Below are positions 33,247-41,136 of a stretch of 64,000 bases of DNA, in pieces (the stretch's first letter is position 1; each line of letters starts with the position of its first letter). The notes under the pieces were generated by a model. That model ran no database searches. It had not been told where the DNA came from and was given only the letters and a program-made list of their open reading frames with translations. Position numbers and translations under genes: made by a program. The DNA is from Acidobacteriota bacterium (GTDB lineage Bacteria > Acidobacteriota > Thermoanaerobaculia > Gp7-AA8), in contig JAFAOU010000018.1 in the NCBI GenBank assembly GCA_019247495.1, positions 1,518 through 65,517 of the forward strand, given 5' to 3'.

Positions 33247-35919
33247 TCACGGGGATGCGCTGGGAGAGTTACGACGAGGCAGGTTGTAAATGAGCCGCAA
33301 GTGAATCGTCCTGCCGGCCTGGAGCACCCGAGGCAATGTGGTGAAGTTGCCCGGGTCGGAATAGTTCTTATTGAGGAGGTTAAAGGCGCTGAGCTGCAGG
33401 GTTGTTTTCGGCAGAATGCGGTAGCTCAGGGTGGCGTCCGTCGTCGAATACGGATCCGTCTGCGTAAAAGGGTCGGTTGCGTCCGTCGTTCCTGGCCCGG
33501 TCCGCCGGCGTCCCACGAAATGAACGCGCAGCCCGCCGTACAGGCGTAGTGAAGCATCGCTGTCAACTCCTACAGTGGCCTGATTGGCGGCGATGTCGGC
33601 CACTGGCAGCTGTCGAATCACTTTGCCGCTGCCGTCCACGAGTGGATTGCCCTCGAAATCGGCCGGGTTCAGTTGCAGCGGCTTCGTATGTGTGTAATTC
33701 GCCCACAGGCGGAATCGGGACAGCCTGTACGCCGCGGTTGCCTGTAATCCGGTAACGAGGAGACGATCGCGATTCTGATACTGCGCGCACCCCGAGAAAC
33801 AGTCGGGTACGAGGGTGCCGTCGGGCAGGCGCGGCGCGCCGATGGCCACGACGTTCGAATAGCTGGCCCGGTACGCCGACGCTTCCACCGACAGCCTTTC
33901 GTCGCGCTCCCAGCTCGCGCTCAGCTCCACGTTGCGCACGCGCTCCGGTGTAAGGCCGTTGCTGCGATATTCGATGACGTATCGCAATACGCTGAATTTT
34001 TGAGCTTCTGTTGGGTCCTTGAATGCTTCCGAATAAATGCTCTTGAGTACGAGCCGTCCATCGCCCGGTGACCAGATCACTCCGACTCGGGGCGTGAACA
34101 GCGTTCCATAGCCGTACGCGCCGGGTTTGTTGTCGATACTGTTGTGGCTGACCCGGCCTGCAAGAACGAATCGCAACGCTTTATACGGTTTCCATGATCC
34201 CTGGCCATAGACGGCCGCGTCGGTATGCTCATTCTCCTCAGGTTTCTCGAGAGCAGTTCCCGTCAGAAATCCAGGACCGCTGGGCGAAGAATCCAATTGC
34301 GTCTGCACTGAGGATTTTGCGAACTCAACGCCGGCCACGCCGCTGATCTTTTCCGACGGTTCATAGGTGAGGCTGATTTCGCTGCGCAATATGCTGTTGA
34401 GTAAACCGAATGTATCTCTCTCGATCCACGGAGAGGCGGGCGCGCAACCGACCGGCTGCGGGTCGTTCGGAGCGACGCAGGGAGGCACAAGACTCCATAG
34501 GCTGAGAAAGCCGTCGTAATAGCTGTGTGTGTAGTCGAAGCGGGAGCTGGCCCGGTCGAGTGACGTCTGTTGATAGCGCGCGAAGATGTTGAGTTTCATG
34601 CGGTCGAGAGGGACCGAGTACTTCATGTATAGAGCGGTCTCTTTCGGCGTCCATGTGGTATTTCCCGTGATCCCGACCGGTATGCCGTAGGCGGAGATGA
34701 TGCCCTCCTGCGACGACCACGATTGAAGGCCGACGGTCAGGTTTTGAACCCGCAGCCGGGCATTCACGGACCAGTTGTTGGCGCGGTCATCGAAGCCGGC
34801 TCCGTGATCCTCGATCAGCTTCCGATCGAGTCCGCGCACGAGTGTTTCACCCGCATCCGTCAGATCGATTCCCGCGGCGCTGCAACGAATGTAGGGCGAC
34901 GGCGTCGCGCAGAGTGCGGCTCTTTCTTCGGAAGTGCCGCCAAGGTGCAGCAGGCTTTTGTAATCGATGGTCCTGTAGGTGAAGTCGTAAAAAGGGAGCG
35001 CGGAAAGATCGCGCTCTTTCGACTGCTGAAAATTCGCGGCCACGCTCCATGCAATCGTCGCGTCGCGGTTGGCGCCGGCGGCGGTGATGTCCGCGGACCG
35101 ATTCGAGTAGCCGCCACCGGTCACCTCGCCGATCAGTCCGAACCGCCCCTTCTCGCCGATGATCGACTCGGGATCGCGGGTGATGATGCTGATTACGCCC
35201 GTGTACGCATTCGCGCCATACATCGTCGAGGCCGGGCCGTAGATCACCTCGACGCGCTCGATATCCGTCAGCGAATACTGCCGCGAGAGGTAGACCACGC
35301 TGCCGCTCAGATCGTTCTGCTCGACACCGTCGACGAGCAGGAGCAGGCGGTCGTTTTCGTTGTTGAGGTAGCCGCGTTGATAGATGGAGGAGTAGTTCGC
35401 TCCATTCAGCCGCGCGATGTCGAAACCGGGCAGGTCGTGAAGAAGTTGTTCGAGGTCGAGGTAGCCGCGCCGCTCGATTTCGTCGCCAGTGATGACCATG
35501 ACCGTGGCGGGCGCTTCGCGCAGACTCTCGCTCGTCTTCGACACGGAGGTGACCTGCGTCTTCTGCTCCTCTTTGCGCACCTTCGCGACGAGCGAGAGAT
35601 AGCGCGCCGACGATCCGGCCTCGGGTTCGTAGTTCGCCTGCAGTCGGAGGAGCGTGGAGACTTCTTTTCGCGCCTTCTCCGGCTCATCGTTGTTGAGATA
35701 GGCGCGCGCAAGCAGTGAGTGGACGTGGGTTGCTACCGCACGCGAGGTCGGTGTGCCGAGGCATGGGGCGAGTTTCGCAGGGATGTCTTCGAAGAGACCA
35801 AGCTCGTAGGTTTTTTCCGCGTCGTGCAGAGCGTCCTCGCACGCGGTCTGCGCGAAGACCTTGGACGACGAGGTCAGCAGGAAGACGGAAGCGAACAGCG
35901 TGATTGCAGTTTTTTTCAT
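33247..35919 (-). CDS. TonB-dependent receptor with N-terminal TPR-like extension
   Basis: Signal peptide; plug motifs (EAPATVMVIT, IERVEVIYGPASTMYGANAYTGVISII); NLLNKNY...GRT barrel end; ATGA overlap with the upstream gene. Confidence 0.88.
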   Translation of the reverse strand: MKKTAITLFASVFLLTSSSKVFAQTACEDALHDAEKTYELGLFEDIPAKLAPCLGTPTSRAVATHVHSLLARAYLNNDEPEKARKEVSTLLRLQANYEPEAGSSARYLSLVAKVRKEEQKTQVTSVSKTSESLREAPATVMVITGDEIERRGYLDLEQLLHDLPGFDIARLNGANYSSIYQRGYLNNENDRLLLLVDGVEQNDLSGSVVYLSRQYSLTDIERVEVIYGPASTMYGANAYTGVISIITRDPESIIGEKGRFGLIGEVTGGGYSNRSADITAAGANRDATIAWSVAANFQQSKERDLSALPFYDFTYRTIDYKSLLHLGGTSEERAALCATPSPYIRCSAAGIDLTDAGETLVRGLDRKLIEDHGAGFDDRANNWSVNARLRVQNLTVGLQSWSSQEGIISAYGIPVGITGNTTWTPKETALYMKYSVPLDRMKLNIFARYQQTSLDRASSRFDYTHSYYDGFLSLWSLVPPCVAPNDPQPVGCAPASPWIERDTFGLLNSILRSEISLTYEPSEKISGVAGVEFAKSSVQTQLDSSPSGPGFLTGTALEKPEENEHTDAAVYGQGSWKPYKALRFVLAGRVSHNSIDNKPGAYGYGTLFTPRVGVIWSPGDGRLVLKSIYSEAFKDPTEAQKFSVLRYVIEYRSNGLTPERVRNVELSASWERDERLSVEASAYRASYSNVVAIGAPRLPDGTLVPDCFSGCAQYQNRDRLLVTGLQATAAYRLSRFRLWANYTHTKPLQLNPADFEGNPLVDGSGKVIRQLPVADIAANQATVGVDSDASLRLYGGLRVHFVGRRRTGPGTTDATDPFTQTDPYSTTDATLSYRILPKTTLQLSAFNLLNKNYSDPGNFTTLPRVLQAGRTIHLRLIYNLPRRNSPSASP

Positions 35920-40698: not shown

Positions 40699-41136
40699 TC
40701 ACGCCGCGGCTTGTTTTTTCGTCGTTTCCTGCTGCGCGGAGGCCCACTTGGCGTGTTCCTGCGACACCAGCGACTCGACGCGTTCGGCGAGCAGGGCGCG
40801 CGGGTCGGCGACGCCGGCGTACGGCGATGCCTTGGCGATGTAGACGTACTTTTCGTGCTTTAACGATTCGCACGTCGATCGATACGCGATCCAGTTCTGC
40901 TGGTACTGGTTCAGATGGAGCAGACCTTCGAGCACCGTGATCACGACGCCCAGCGCTCCCGCTACCCAGCTAACGTTCGGGATCGGGAGCGCCGGCAGGA
41001 ACGGAATCACCGCGGCCGCCACGATCTCCGTGACTTTGATCCGCTTGTAAATCCGCTGGTTACTGCTGCTCTTGCGGTCGTACCAGGAGATCTGATCCTC
41101 GAGACGTTCGATCACCGGATCTGCGTCAGCCGTCAT
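40699..41136 (-). CDS. DUF4231/SLATT-like two-TM protein
   Basis: RLEDQISWYDRKS, two TM helices, NWIAYRSTCESLKHEKY. Confidence 0.82.
   Translation of the reverse strand: MTADADPVIERLEDQISWYDRKSSSNQRIYKRIKVTEIVAAAVIPFLPALPIPNVSWVAGALGVVITVLEGLLHLNQYQQNWIAYRSTCESLKHEKYVYIAKASPYAGVADPRALLAERVESLVSQEHAKWASAQQETTKKQAAA

Follow-up and report, generated by a model that had tools for sequence, protein, structure and literature searches.

A conserved TIR-STAND-outer-membrane barrel cassette with a predicted envelope-spanning architecture

A TIR-like protein, a STAND ATPase and an outer-membrane barrel bearing a particular N-terminal module (N-module) are encoded side by side as a conserved unit, and we think it moderately probable that the three proteins form an envelope-spanning assembly that signals from the outside in to a TIR NADase. 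In the window, which is the whole 64,000-nucleotide stretch of DNA that was analysed and comes from a soil acidobacterium, the locus consists of four co-oriented genes on the minus strand (Table 1), as the first-pass annotation had described. Since the junctions between the TIR and STAND genes and between the STAND and TonB-dependent receptor (TBDR) genes read ...CTCATGACC... and ...CCGATGAAA..., respectively, each pair is joined by a 4-bp ATGA overlap, confirming the earlier description, and the same 4-bp overlaps are present in relatives L001, L002, L083-L087 and L090. The domain calls made earlier for the four genes also held, with profile matches to DUF4231, TIR_2/DUF4062, nSTAND1/WD40 and Plug/TonB_dep_Rec.

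Table 1. Positions of the genes and features of the locus within the window.
Feature	Position	Strand	Remarks
SLATT/DUF4231 2-TM protein	40699..41136	-	145 aa; alternative ATG at 41148
Triple TIR-like protein	39017..40501	-	494 aa; putative effector or adaptor, predicted cytoplasmic
TIR module 1 (residues 1-186)	39944..40501	-	canonical TIR, motif S-D-W-C-N-R-E-L
Module 1 Glu at catalytic position (E93)	codon 40223-40225	-	
TIR-like module 2 (residues 199-342)	39476..39907	-	DUF4062/NIR-like; Pfam DUF4062 E 8.3e-6
TIR-like module 3 (residues 360-493)	39023..39424	-	AlphaFold2 alpha/beta domain; hhalign
ATGA stop/start overlap TIR/STAND	39017..39020	-	4 bp; read from the sequence
nSTAND1 ATPase-TM-coiled coil-WD40 protein	35916..39020	-	1034 aa
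nSTAND1 NTPase module (residues 15-428)	37737..38978	-	predicted cytoplasmic
Walker A, GRSGSGKSS	38835-38861	-	
Single TM helix L498-Y517	37470..37529	-	predicted N-in/C-out; hydropathy, K/R bias
Ala-rich coiled-coil stalk (residues ~518-645)	37086..37469	-	predicted to span the periplasm
WD40 beta-propeller (residues ~700-1000)	36021..36923	-	predicted periplasmic sensor/docking domain; Pfam; C-terminal to N-in TM
STAND C-terminal tail	35922..36014	-	Cys pair C1003/C1033
ATGA stop/start overlap STAND/TBDR	35916..35919	-	4 bp; read from the sequence
TBDR with N-terminal extension	33247..35919	-	890 aa; outer-membrane
TBDR signal peptide	35851-35919	-	
N-module (residues 24-118)	35566..35850	-	secreted TPR-like helical domain; Cys pair C27/C53
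Flexible linker with TonB-box-like motif (residues 119-135)	35515..35565	-	...TQVTSVSKT...; pLDDT <50
Plug (residues 136-255) and 22-strand-type barrel (256-890)	33250..35514	-	Pfam, AlphaFold2, Foldseek

The STAND protein has more than 8000 homologues, each of ~1040 aa, and at least 584 loci were found in GTDB species genomes. In 71/73 loci that extend far enough downstream, STAND is followed by a barrel gene with the N-module, and a TIR-like homologue lies directly 5' of STAND in 66/74 loci with enough flank, the TIR gene being missing altogether from eight loci. Together with the recurring ATGA overlaps, these counts bear out the proposal that the TIR, STAND and receptor genes are a conserved, translationally coupled unit. 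The barrel is a TBDR in Acidobacteriota and a small outer-membrane protein (OMP_b-brl_2) in Bacteroidota, where a homologue of the N-module forms the N-terminus of the barrel gene 3' of STAND; the constant partner of STAND is the N-module, not the TBDR. Acidobacterial triads number 15 (the window, L001-5, L007, L008, L083-87 and two in L090), and whole triads have been duplicated together in tandem; in tandem paralogous triads the linker is 94% identical, as against 45% for WD40, 59% for the N-module and 50% for the barrel. Cyanobacterial relatives keep the pair of TIR and TM-STAND genes with no adjacent barrel gene, so the outer-membrane partner is either not universal or encoded elsewhere. 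Because a small OMP replaces the TBDR in Bacteroidota and cyanobacteria lack an adjacent barrel gene, a ligand of the TonB receptor, the trigger first suggested, does not serve as a general one.

The STAND protein matched nSTAND1 (E 8.9e-96) and WD40 (E 9.9e-45) in Pfam, along with many other beta-propeller families. Its ATPase motifs are intact, the Walker A G/S/G/G/K/S/S residues and the D-Q-F-E-E of Walker B (LVLVDQFEE) being invariant in 82/82 homologues. The TM helix has a mean Kyte-Doolittle value of 2.6 over 19 aa (1.3 for the next-best stretch), and in all 82 homologues its 15-aa N-flank contains more K/R than its C-flank (means 6.3 vs 2.6). The segment that follows had been called a coiled coil, and rightly: 124 residues are free of Pro and Gly, contain 27% Ala and keep a heptad phase, with 17 of 33 Ala at one heptad position and an invariant Ala every 7 residues. 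Stalk lengths in the family are 95, 109, 116, 123 or 130 aa, offset from that of the window by a multiple of 7 in 78/82 homologues. In the C-terminal tail, C1003 and C1033 are both present in 71 homologues and both absent from 11, and no homologue has a single one. The K/R bias, the covarying Cys pairs and the heptad-quantised stalk agree with the earlier placement of the WD40 propeller in the periplasm rather than the cytoplasm, and by these sequence rules the STAND protein is predicted to be anchored N-in in the inner membrane.

The protein encoded 5' of STAND matched TIR_2 (E 2e-10) and DUF4062 (above the cut-off), and its AlphaFold2 model (pLDDT 87.8) contains three alpha/beta domains; its Foldseek matches are the TIR domains of SPARTA TIR-APAZ, SARM1, RUN1, AbTir and MyD88, in keeping with the multi-TIR assignment. 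The module 1 motif (SxWCxREL) was aligned by profile to the alphaC 'SxWCxxEL' of the plant TIRs SNC1, RPS4 and L6, which places E93 at the plant TIR catalytic Glu. This residue is kept in 9/9 homologues from Acidobacteriota, 2/2 from cyanobacteria and proteobacteria, and 5/54 from Bacteroidota. Module 2, in which S272 and Q277 are nearly invariant among homologues, is related to module 3 (hhalign E 1.8e-4), which has a conserved W424 and, where the Glu would be, an invariant Lys (K428). DUF4062 NADases are reported to use an E-Y catalytic motif (bioRxiv 10.64898/2026.06.25.731849), and Q277 probably occupies the position of their catalytic Glu. Module 1 is the only one of the three with a Glu at the catalytic position. 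With this Glu mostly lost in Bacteroidota, and with Gln and Lys in its place in modules 2 and 3, the proposed NADase output may be confined to the clade of the window.

The receptor matched Plug (E 4e-20) and the TonB_dep_Rec barrel (E 9e-31), and the best Foldseek matches of its AlphaFold2 model (pLDDT 81.7) were PirA, Cir, PfeA, PhuR and BtuB (E ~1e-30). Its N-terminal extension had been described as a TPR cap. That description holds with support below threshold: the model has helical hairpins at residues 26-93, and the TPR matches are sub-threshold in profile searches (TPR_19, E 7.7e-4) and weak and non-significant against PDB profiles (best E 0.024; BamD E 0.23). The ~100-aa N-module occurs in 2609 clusters (50% identity), nearly always at residues ~20-130, and its C27/C53 pair is complete in 64 homologues and wholly absent from 7. 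The linker residues Q122, V123, S125, V126, S127 and K128 do not vary among 30 TBDR homologues. Profile searches gave no STN or FecR match.

Overall, these data fit a mechanism in which the outer-membrane barrel, here a TBDR, would display the disulfide-stapled TPR-like N-module to the periplasm, while the STAND protein, anchored N-in in the inner membrane, would cross the periplasm with a rigid Ala-heptad coiled coil of ~16-19 nm and so bring its propeller and disulfide-stapled tail beside the N-module. We infer this contact between N-module and WD40, and assume the outside-in direction of signalling; the co-occurrence of N-module and STAND across phyla fits the relay from cap to propeller that had been suggested. 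The trigger would be an outer-membrane or periplasmic change, in the window's clade probably a ligand- or TonB-driven motion of the N-terminal region of the receptor; it would shift the contact and be passed through the stalk and TM helix to the nSTAND1 ATPase in the cytoplasm, and the ATPase may then switch or oligomerise and activate the separately encoded triple TIR-like protein. As the catalytic Glu persists in the first TIR module, the output is probably NAD+ cleavage, acting through depletion or a TIR-derived signal. DUF4062/TIR-like domains are NADases that are switched on by STAND or oligomerising partners (bioRxiv 10.64898/2026.09.04.749371, 10.64898/2026.05.01.722283), and both NADase chemistry and STAND-dependent activation would probably apply to the cassette. 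Its role could be that of a defence or conflict alarm watching the envelope, or of a physiological surface-signalling circuit; for the acidobacterial, cyanobacterial and proteobacterial clade, where the catalytic Glu is kept, we slightly favour a role in stress or conflict.

The immune role first put forward is not established. PADLOC gave no matches above noise at the locus, and the flanks in Thermoanaerobaculia and Cytophagales are syntenic and housekeeping-like, unlike typical defence islands, and the surroundings look vertically inherited. The acidobacterial copies are flanked on both sides by the same housekeeping genes (GAF/response regulator/Rieske-cytochrome b; CheB), and Bacteroidota have a rigidly conserved six-gene array with syntenic flanks, encoding a membrane-HEAT-cNMP-binding protein, the TIR-like protein, STAND, the N-module OMP, a lipoprotein and a secreted protein of ~1800 aa. 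These features, the loss of the Glu in most Bacteroidota and the loci without a TIR gene would suit a non-immune housekeeping module of the envelope, working inside-out or structurally, in which the STAND stalk and propeller tether or control the barrel and the TIR-like protein is a non-catalytic nucleotide-binding adaptor, with roles, for example, in organising the envelope, in handling surface proteins or in motility-related functions. We consider this unlikely, given that the canonical TIR catalytic motif is complete in 9/9 sequences of the window's clade and that pairings of STAND with TIR/DUF4062 are otherwise known from conflict systems; some relatives, moreover, adjoin GmrSD, PIN/MazE, patatin or additional TIR genes, and paralogous triads diverge fastest in their periplasmic and sensor parts, as expected for receptors differing in specificity.

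The two remaining readings concern which genes belong together. The window, like L002, L004 and L085, has a cluster of NHLP precursor, YcaO and ThcOx genes ~90 bp downstream; with the standard fold of plug and barrel and the cyanobacterial pairs, this cluster could mean that the TBDR imports nutrients in the ordinary way or works with the RiPP genes, and that the TIR-STAND pair is a chance neighbour acting as an Avs-like cytoplasmic sensor whose TM helix is a mere membrane anchor. This is very improbable: the RiPP cluster is missing from most triad loci (L001, L003, L005, L007, L008, L083 and L086), the N-module stays 3' of STAND across phyla despite the exchange of barrels, the ATGA coupling is conserved and triads are co-duplicated, and the K/R bias and Cys covariation speak against a cytoplasmic WD40. 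The SLATT protein (Pfam DUF4231, E 1.8e-26; NCBIfam SLATT_1, E 2.7e-36) had been counted as a possible fourth member. SLATT proteins are predicted effectors of nucleotide-signalling conflict systems, and the gene is co-oriented 197 bp 5' of the TIR gene, a position kept in four close relatives (L083, L084, L086 and L087, at least 81% identity), so that SLATT might be a membrane effector opened by a TIR-made nucleotide signal. We regard that model as quite improbable, however, as the SLATT and TIR genes show no overlap or coupling and a SLATT homologue was found in 0/82 wider loci. In L085 (STAND 76% identical) it is missing and the GAF gene directly adjoins the TIR gene, and in L086 a PIN gene shares the slot with SLATT, which thus acts like a small site of variable insertions. 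SLATT is a neighbour outside the conserved core, and its confinement to these relatives marks it as a local, clade-specific add-on.

The searched literature contained no description of the envelope-spanning cassette that we favour. Its NTPase belongs to the same clade as the nSTAND1 conflict systems of Kaur, Burroughs, Iyer and Aravind (eLife 2021 PMC8195603, eLife 2020 PMC7159879); the searched text of these papers places nSTAND1 in predicted conflict systems with TIR and other effectors and has no TonB or outer-membrane barrel partner, and that of PMC7159879 describes other systems with TM helices and with an extracellular domain of the periplasmic-binding-protein kind, and contains no periplasmic WD40 and no such cassette. 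In the eukaryotic DUF4062-NACHT-WD40 proteins TEP1 and NWD1/2, and in Apaf-1, a TIR-like or adaptor domain likewise precedes a STAND ATPase and WD40 propeller(s), and the TIR-like domain of TEP1 is an active NADase (bioRxiv 10.64898/2026.05.01.722283); those, however, are soluble single polypeptides, whereas the order here is split over two genes and parted by the membrane, and the STAND clade is nSTAND1. Like the antiviral STAND or bacterial NLR-like proteins (Avs, bNACHT), the cassette has a STAND NTPase whose Walker motifs are intact, a repeat sensor at the C-terminus and, presumably, activation by oligomerisation; like Avs2, which has an N-terminal DUF4062/NIR NADase (bioRxiv 10.64898/2026.09.04.749371), it has an output domain of the TIR/DUF4062 family that keeps a catalytic Glu. 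It differs from them in that its effector has a gene of its own, translationally coupled and with three TIR-like modules, its NTPase is of the nSTAND1 clade, its sensor is predicted to be carried into the periplasm by a TM helix and a ~125-residue coiled coil, and it has a dedicated outer-membrane partner; it lacks a defence-island context or PADLOC match and is not known to have a phage phenotype.

TolA and TonB too are anchored N-in by a single TM helix, cross the periplasm with a long helical stalk rich in Ala/Glu/Lys and have a C-terminal domain that touches an outer-membrane-associated partner, and the cassette STAND is predicted to follow this plan. No sequence homology between them was detected, and whereas TolA and TonB are driven by TolQR or ExbBD and the proton-motive force, the STAND protein has a fused P-loop ATPase, a WD40 propeller and a TIR partner. 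The likeness to FecA-FecR-FecI noted at first is upheld in layout, the cap, TonB-box-like linker, plug and barrel mirroring FecA-type transducers; a single-pass inner-membrane partner whose periplasmic part is predicted to reach the receptor, and several paralogous sets per genome, are further common traits. In contrast to the Fec system, the extension is not an STN domain but a TPR-like module with a predicted disulfide staple, a STAND ATPase-WD40 protein takes the place of the anti-sigma factor in the inner membrane and a TIR protein that of the ECF sigma factor as output, and the Bacteroidota barrel is a small plug-less OMP. If our reading is true, the cassette looks like an undescribed way of connecting signals at the cell surface with an output of the immune type.

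Four co-oriented open reading frames occupy the minus strand of the window at 33247-41148, and profile searches confirmed every domain that the first-pass annotation had named in them. The ATGA stop/start overlaps described for the TIR/STAND and STAND/TBDR junctions are both real on direct reading of the re-read sequence, each being 4 bp long, and together they set the true starts as MTSYAFDDP... for the STAND protein (1034 aa) and MKKTAITLF... for the TonB-dependent receptor (TBDR; 890 aa, with signal peptide). The gap between the SLATT gene and the TIR-like gene is 197 bp. A sigma-70 promoter scan of 32500-41400 returned no sites, and terminator-like sites in the same interval were fewer than the shuffled expectation, the sigma-70 model and the terminator scan both being uninformative for an acidobacterium.

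Features of the TIR-STAND-TBDR cassette and its neighbors in the window
Feature	Position	Strand	Description
Amidohydrolase	28173-29249	minus	
ThcOx/nitroreductase oxidase	29246-30550	minus	
YcaO protein	30560-32848	minus	N-terminal wHTH/ThiF-like part
NHLP-leader RiPP precursor	32869-33156	minus	95 aa; TIGR03793 E 1.4e-13; ~90 bp after the receptor gene
Receptor		minus	Plug and TonB-dependent receptor barrel profile matches
STAND/receptor overlap	35916-35919	minus	4 bp, ...GCCG-ATGA-AAAAA...
STAND coiled-coil stalk	37086-37469	minus	
STAND		minus	nSTAND1 (E 9e-96) and WD40 profile matches
TIR-like/STAND overlap	39017-39020	minus	4 bp, ...GCTC-ATGA-CC...
TIR-like protein		minus	TIR_2 and DUF4062 profile matches
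SLATT protein	40699-41136	minus	DUF4231 and SLATT_1 profile matches
Divergent neighbors	41204-45184	plus	Coiled-coil GAF protein, unannotated 422-aa ORF, 4Fe-4S ferredoxin, HEAT-repeat protein

Homologues similar in length to the STAND protein number more than 8000, and GTDB, scanned with a single genome for each species, gave at least 584 STAND loci, spread over Acidobacteriota, Bacteroidota, Cyanobacteria and Proteobacteria. The best 80 were analyzed together with loci from an exact look-up; the 82 wider loci are the best-scoring and mostly from Bacteroidota, and neighborhoods were compared by tblastn and ORF clustering. Directly upstream of STAND, a TIR-like homologue of ~480-500 aa was found in 66 of the 74 loci with enough flank, and the gene that follows STAND encodes a barrel bearing the N-module (the helical extension of the window receptor) in 71 of the 73 loci whose downstream sequence runs to 1.1 kb or more. 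A full-length TBDR in this position occurs only in Acidobacteriota, where 15 triads were seen with the 4-bp overlaps kept. In Bacteroidota (Cytophagales, Bacteroidales and others), the next gene encodes a ~350-aa protein composed of a signal peptide, a ~100-aa N-module homologue and a small, PorT-like OMP_b-brl_2 barrel. The constant partner of STAND is an outer-membrane-anchored N-module, and it is the barrel behind this module that is exchanged; of all the comparative evidence, this retention of the N-module despite the barrel swap speaks most strongly for its being functionally linked to the C-terminal part of STAND. The cyanobacterial relatives (Leptolyngbya iicbica, Synechococcus sp. PCC 7336) have the TIR and STAND pair with transmembrane (TM) helix and stalk and no adjacent barrel gene.

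One Thermoanaerobaculia contig (L090:1-15747) carries two complete TIR-STAND-TBDR triads in tandem, with three small unannotated genes between them on the opposite strand. Identity between these paralogues is 94% in the TonB-box-like linker, 75% in the plug, 74% in the ATPase, 59% in the N-module, 50% in the barrel and 44-45% in the WD40 and stalk. High identity of the linker and ATPase would be expected if they bind shared partners (TonB for the one, nucleotide and the TIR protein for the other), and the lower values would be expected if propeller, cap and barrel carry paralogue-specific recognition. Departures from the usual arrangement were also observed. Six loci of Fulvivirga-type and related genomes (L019, L039, L063, L074, L078 and L082) are without the TIR-like gene and have a cNMP-binding membrane protein gene directly before STAND, and two "orphan" STANDs (L030, L080) are without both TIR gene and barrel gene. 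At one Leptolyngbyaceae MAG locus (L047:6778-7979), two small genes (160 and 240 aa) lie between TIR and STAND, possibly a mobile-element insertion that split the pair.

SLATT, which the first-pass annotation had counted as a member of the pathway, does not belong to the conserved cassette: its homologues were found by tblastn and ORF clustering in 0 of the 82 wider loci, and it is present only where STAND is at least 81% identical (close acidobacterial relatives L083, L084, L086 and L087), being absent from a 76% relative with the same flanking genes (L085). The SLATT domain itself is present in the window, but its co-conservation with a nucleotide-generating enzyme was not observed. On the other side of the cassette, the minus-strand genes at 28173-33156 look like a TOMM-type RiPP cluster. 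This cluster adjoins the triad in L002, L004 and L085 and is absent from most other loci, and because of this patchy occurrence it was treated as a neighbor; an assignment of the TBDR to the RiPP cluster was likewise rejected, as the adjacency is variable. The divergent genes upstream of SLATT are syntenic in all close relatives, so the chromosomal position of the cassette is fixed. In these relatives, the triad lies between a GAF/response regulator to Rieske/cytochrome b stretch and CheB, with variable inserts at its edges (SLATT, PIN, RiPP or carotenoid genes); in L083, L085 and L086, a response regulator gene also follows the GAF gene and is itself followed by the Rieske/cytochrome b genes.

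In the Bacteroidota loci (L010-L082; for example, L017:3357-19071), a rigidly conserved array with syntenic flanks surrounds the cassette. Its order is a ~1058-aa polytopic membrane-HEAT protein with a C-terminal cNMP-binding domain, the TIR-like protein, STAND, the N-module outer-membrane protein, a lipoprotein of ~426 aa in which weak beta-propeller repeats are seen, and a secreted protein of ~1800 aa with Gly_rich_2. The position of the cNMP-binding membrane protein next to the TIR-like gene is suggestive; neither this neighbor (c3) nor the lipoprotein (c4) has a homologue in the window or in the acidobacterial loci. The stability of array and flanks is unlike that of typical defense islands. 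Some distant relatives adjoin GmrSD, PIN/MazE, Uma2, patatin or extra TIR genes. Given the syntenic housekeeping flanks in close relatives, the context of the cassette is not that of a defense island, though a few defense-type neighbors occur in distant ones.

The AF2 model of the receptor (pLDDT 81.7) runs from the signal peptide through helices at residues 26-39, 43-54, 60-76 and 80-93 and another at 105-124 to a disordered segment (119-135), followed by the plug and the barrel. It has the Pfam Plug and TonB_dep_Rec domains and the plug plus 22-strand barrel of a TonB-dependent receptor, and Foldseek matched it to PirA, Cir, PfeA, PhuR and BtuB (E ~1e-30). The N-terminal extension had been described as a TPR cap; TPR-like is a fair description, given its helices and weak TPR matches, but the matches are sub-threshold (TPR_19 E 7.7e-4; PDB TPR proteins at best E 0.024, BamD E 0.23), and no family can be assigned. 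Just before the plug, where TonB boxes lie, the disordered linker contains an invariant Q-V-x-S-V-S-K that appears TonB-box-like in position and pattern. An exhaustive profile search found the N-module in 2609 clusters at 50% identity (1426 of them with E <= 1e-10), nearly always at residues ~20-130 of proteins of ~345-375 aa; it thus represents a large family of periplasmic domains that has no name yet.

The STAND protein opens directly with its nSTAND1 module (PF20703; E 8.9e-96; 322 bits, cut-off 27.1), residues 15-428 covering profile positions 1-373 of 379, and the TIR effector-like protein is encoded by a separate gene. The Walker A (G-x-S-G-x-G-K-S-S; GRSGSGKSS in the window) and Walker B motifs (h-h-h-h-D-Q-F-E-E; LVLVDQFEE) are unchanged in 82 of 82 homologues, indicating that selection maintains the NTPase as an enzyme. 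Topology was evaluated over the same 82 homologues by sequence rules (hydrophobicity, K/R bias, Cys pairs and stalk composition). After ~500 residues of cytoplasmic type, every protein has one strongly hydrophobic segment of 19-20 residues (mean Kyte-Doolittle 2.6; next-best segment 1.3), and in all 82 the 15 residues before it contain more Lys/Arg than the 15 after it (means 6.3 and 2.6), a positive-inside bias that predicts an N-in/C-out protein. The ~125 residues that follow form a stalk with an invariant Ala at each seventh residue, 27% Ala and 0 Pro/Gly in the window (0.6% Pro/Gly family-wide). Stalk lengths across phyla are 95, 109, 116, 123 or 130 residues, and the offset from the window is a multiple of seven in 78 of the 82 sequences; this heptad-quantized length is an unusually clean case of "molecular ruler" behavior. 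At 109-130 residues, such a coiled coil measures ~16-19 nm, comparable to the width of the periplasm.

Behind the propeller, the two tail cysteines C1003/C1033 are both present in 71 proteins and both missing in 11, a single one being found in 0; in the N-module, C27/C53 are both present in 64 and both missing in 7, and in the 2 apparent exceptions the second Cys is merely shifted. Such all-or-none pairs have the look of disulfides, and it is in the periplasm, not in the cytoplasm, that these form stably. Because of these Cys pairs, the positive-inside bias and the outer-membrane partner, a periplasmic WD40 is the best-supported topology, as a prediction. A cytoplasmic WD40, named by the first-pass annotation as evidence against its pathway, is not borne out, since the sequence rules put the domain C-terminal to an N-in TM helix. 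Loss of the STAND-tail pair in Bacteroidales through an anaerobic lack of periplasmic disulfides was considered and rejected, as the N-module pair is kept in the same genomes.

The 494-aa upstream protein had been called multi-TIR, and correctly so: its AF2 model (pLDDT 87.8) has three alpha/beta domains (1-186, 199-342 and 360-493), the top Foldseek matches are TIR domains (SPARTA TIR-APAZ, SARM1, RUN1, AbTir with TMt 0.72, and MyD88), and the TIR_2 profile matches at E 2e-10. By hhalign, similarity of module 1 to modules 2 and 3 was undetectable, and sequence relatedness was confined to the latter two (E 1.8e-4). A profile of the protein searched against the PDB gave matches for module 1 and a weak nucleoside 2-deoxyribosyltransferase match for module 3, with no solved DUF4062 structure found. 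Module 1 contains S87-D-W-C-N-R-E93-L, which lines up with the alphaC motif of the plant TIRs SNC1, RPS4 and L6, where their catalytic Glu lies. Module 2 (S272, Q277) passes the Pfam threshold for DUF4062/NIR (PF13271; 26.4 bits, cut-off 24.7, E 8.3e-6). DUF4062 ("NIR") domains are TIR-like NADases that act in the Avs2, Swarozyc and Evangelion defense systems and in human TEP1, with a catalytic Glu in an E-Y motif (PsAvs2 E108, KpSwz E97, Eva01 E87) and dead E-to-Q mutants (three 2026 preprints: bioRxiv 10.64898/2026.06.25.731849, 10.64898/2026.09.04.749371 and 10.64898/2026.05.01.722283). At the judged site of this Glu, module 2 has a near-invariant Gln (Q277), and module 3 (W424, K428) has an invariant Lys at the Glu-equivalent position (K428), both equivalences being motif-based and not from a structure-based alignment. 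The module 1 motif is complete in 9 of 9 acidobacterial and 2 of 2 cyanobacterial/proteobacterial homologues; in Bacteroidota, its Trp is lost and its Glu is kept in only 5 of 54. Since the catalytic Glu is retained in module 1 and apparently replaced by Gln or Lys in modules 2 and 3, module 1 alone looks catalytically competent, and only in the clade of the window; the other two more probably serve in regulation or as scaffolds. Five Bacteroidota homologues have Glu in the otherwise invariant Q277 column, and in these proteins module 2, not module 1, might be the active one.

Starting from the computed composition and conservation of the cassette, its predicted topology and its intact ATPase and TIR motifs, we favor, as somewhat more likely than not, outside-in signaling across the envelope with NAD+ consumption as the output; the contact between N-module and propeller, the direction of signaling, the activation step and the NADase chemistry are what we infer beyond these. 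In this scheme, the N-module and the propeller would make contact in the periplasm, and this contact would shift when the outer-membrane partner changes state, in the clade of the window probably through ligand- or TonB-driven displacement of the N-terminal region of the receptor. The stalk and TM helix would hand the change on to the nSTAND1 ATPase, whose switching or oligomerization may then turn on TIR module 1 to consume NAD+. The main rival is a housekeeping envelope machine with the TIR-like protein as a non-catalytic adaptor. It fits the Bacteroidota data, where the module 1 Glu is mostly gone, better than trans-envelope signaling does, and overall we rate it as rather improbable; if true, STAND and TIR-like domains would still be put to an unexpected purpose. 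SLATT could act as the effector of the cassette only as a clade-specific add-on, and its absence from the 82 wider loci and from the 76% relative makes this role quite unlikely. That the receptor is an ordinary TBDR adjoining by chance is very unlikely when set beside the N-module kept after STAND across phyla.

Within the preferred outside-in reading, a possible but doubtful function is that the periplasmic WD40 "guards" the outer-membrane receptor through its TPR-like cap. Hijacking or perturbation of the receptor, for example through phage adsorption/DNA entry, the import of bacteriocins or an attack that depends on contact, would pass as a signal over both membranes to a STAND switch driven by ATP and on to the TIR NADase, so that the cell would abort or stop growing before the invader got into its cytoplasm. 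If so, the cassette would provide the first case of an NLR-like (STAND) receptor with its ligand-sensing propeller outside the cytoplasm, and paralogous triads would form a repertoire of surface guards with differing specificities. The cassette would join two fields, TonB-dependent cell-surface signaling and TIR/NAD+ immunity, and the N-module is newly defined as an unnamed periplasmic domain (~2600 clusters at 50% identity) that is nearly always N-terminal on an outer-membrane barrel. Topology, the binding pair and ATP-dependent NADase activity are testable, with K60, E93, C27/C53 and C1003/C1033 as residues to mutate, and cultured carriers include Chryseosolibacter histidini, Chryseotalea sanaruensis and Fulvivirga kasyanovii besides the two cyanobacteria.

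In the literature searched, no published description of a STAND-WD40/TIR/TonB cassette was found, and, in term searches, two nSTAND1 papers (PMC8195603, PMC7159879) and a 2026 STAND survey (PMC13581612) describe neither an outer-membrane barrel partner nor a periplasmic WD40. PADLOC matched no defense-system model to any of the four proteins, giving only a 16.7-bit noise match. The layout of the receptor is similar to that of FecA/FecR surface signaling, in line with the FecIRA-like circuit proposed in the first-pass annotation, but the TPR-like extension has no STN match, and the flanking genes examined include STAND and TIR genes and no match to the FecR (anti-sigma factor) or FecI (sigma factor) families. 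The cassette resembles Avs-type STAND-NADase defense in combining STAND, a repeat sensor and a TIR-family output. However, Avs and other bacterial NLR-like defense proteins are single polypeptides, whereas here the TIR effector-like protein is encoded by a separate gene, and Avs senses phage proteins in the cytoplasm, whereas here the predicted place of the WD40 domain, which follows an N-in TM helix, is the periplasm. To our knowledge, trigger sensing is cytoplasmic in every bacterial STAND/NLR-like system characterized so far. The domain logic is shared with TEP1, NWD1 and Apaf-1, but here it is laid out across a membrane and over two genes, and an exported, stalk-mounted sensor paired with an outer-membrane protein would carry the NLR principle over to envelope surveillance.
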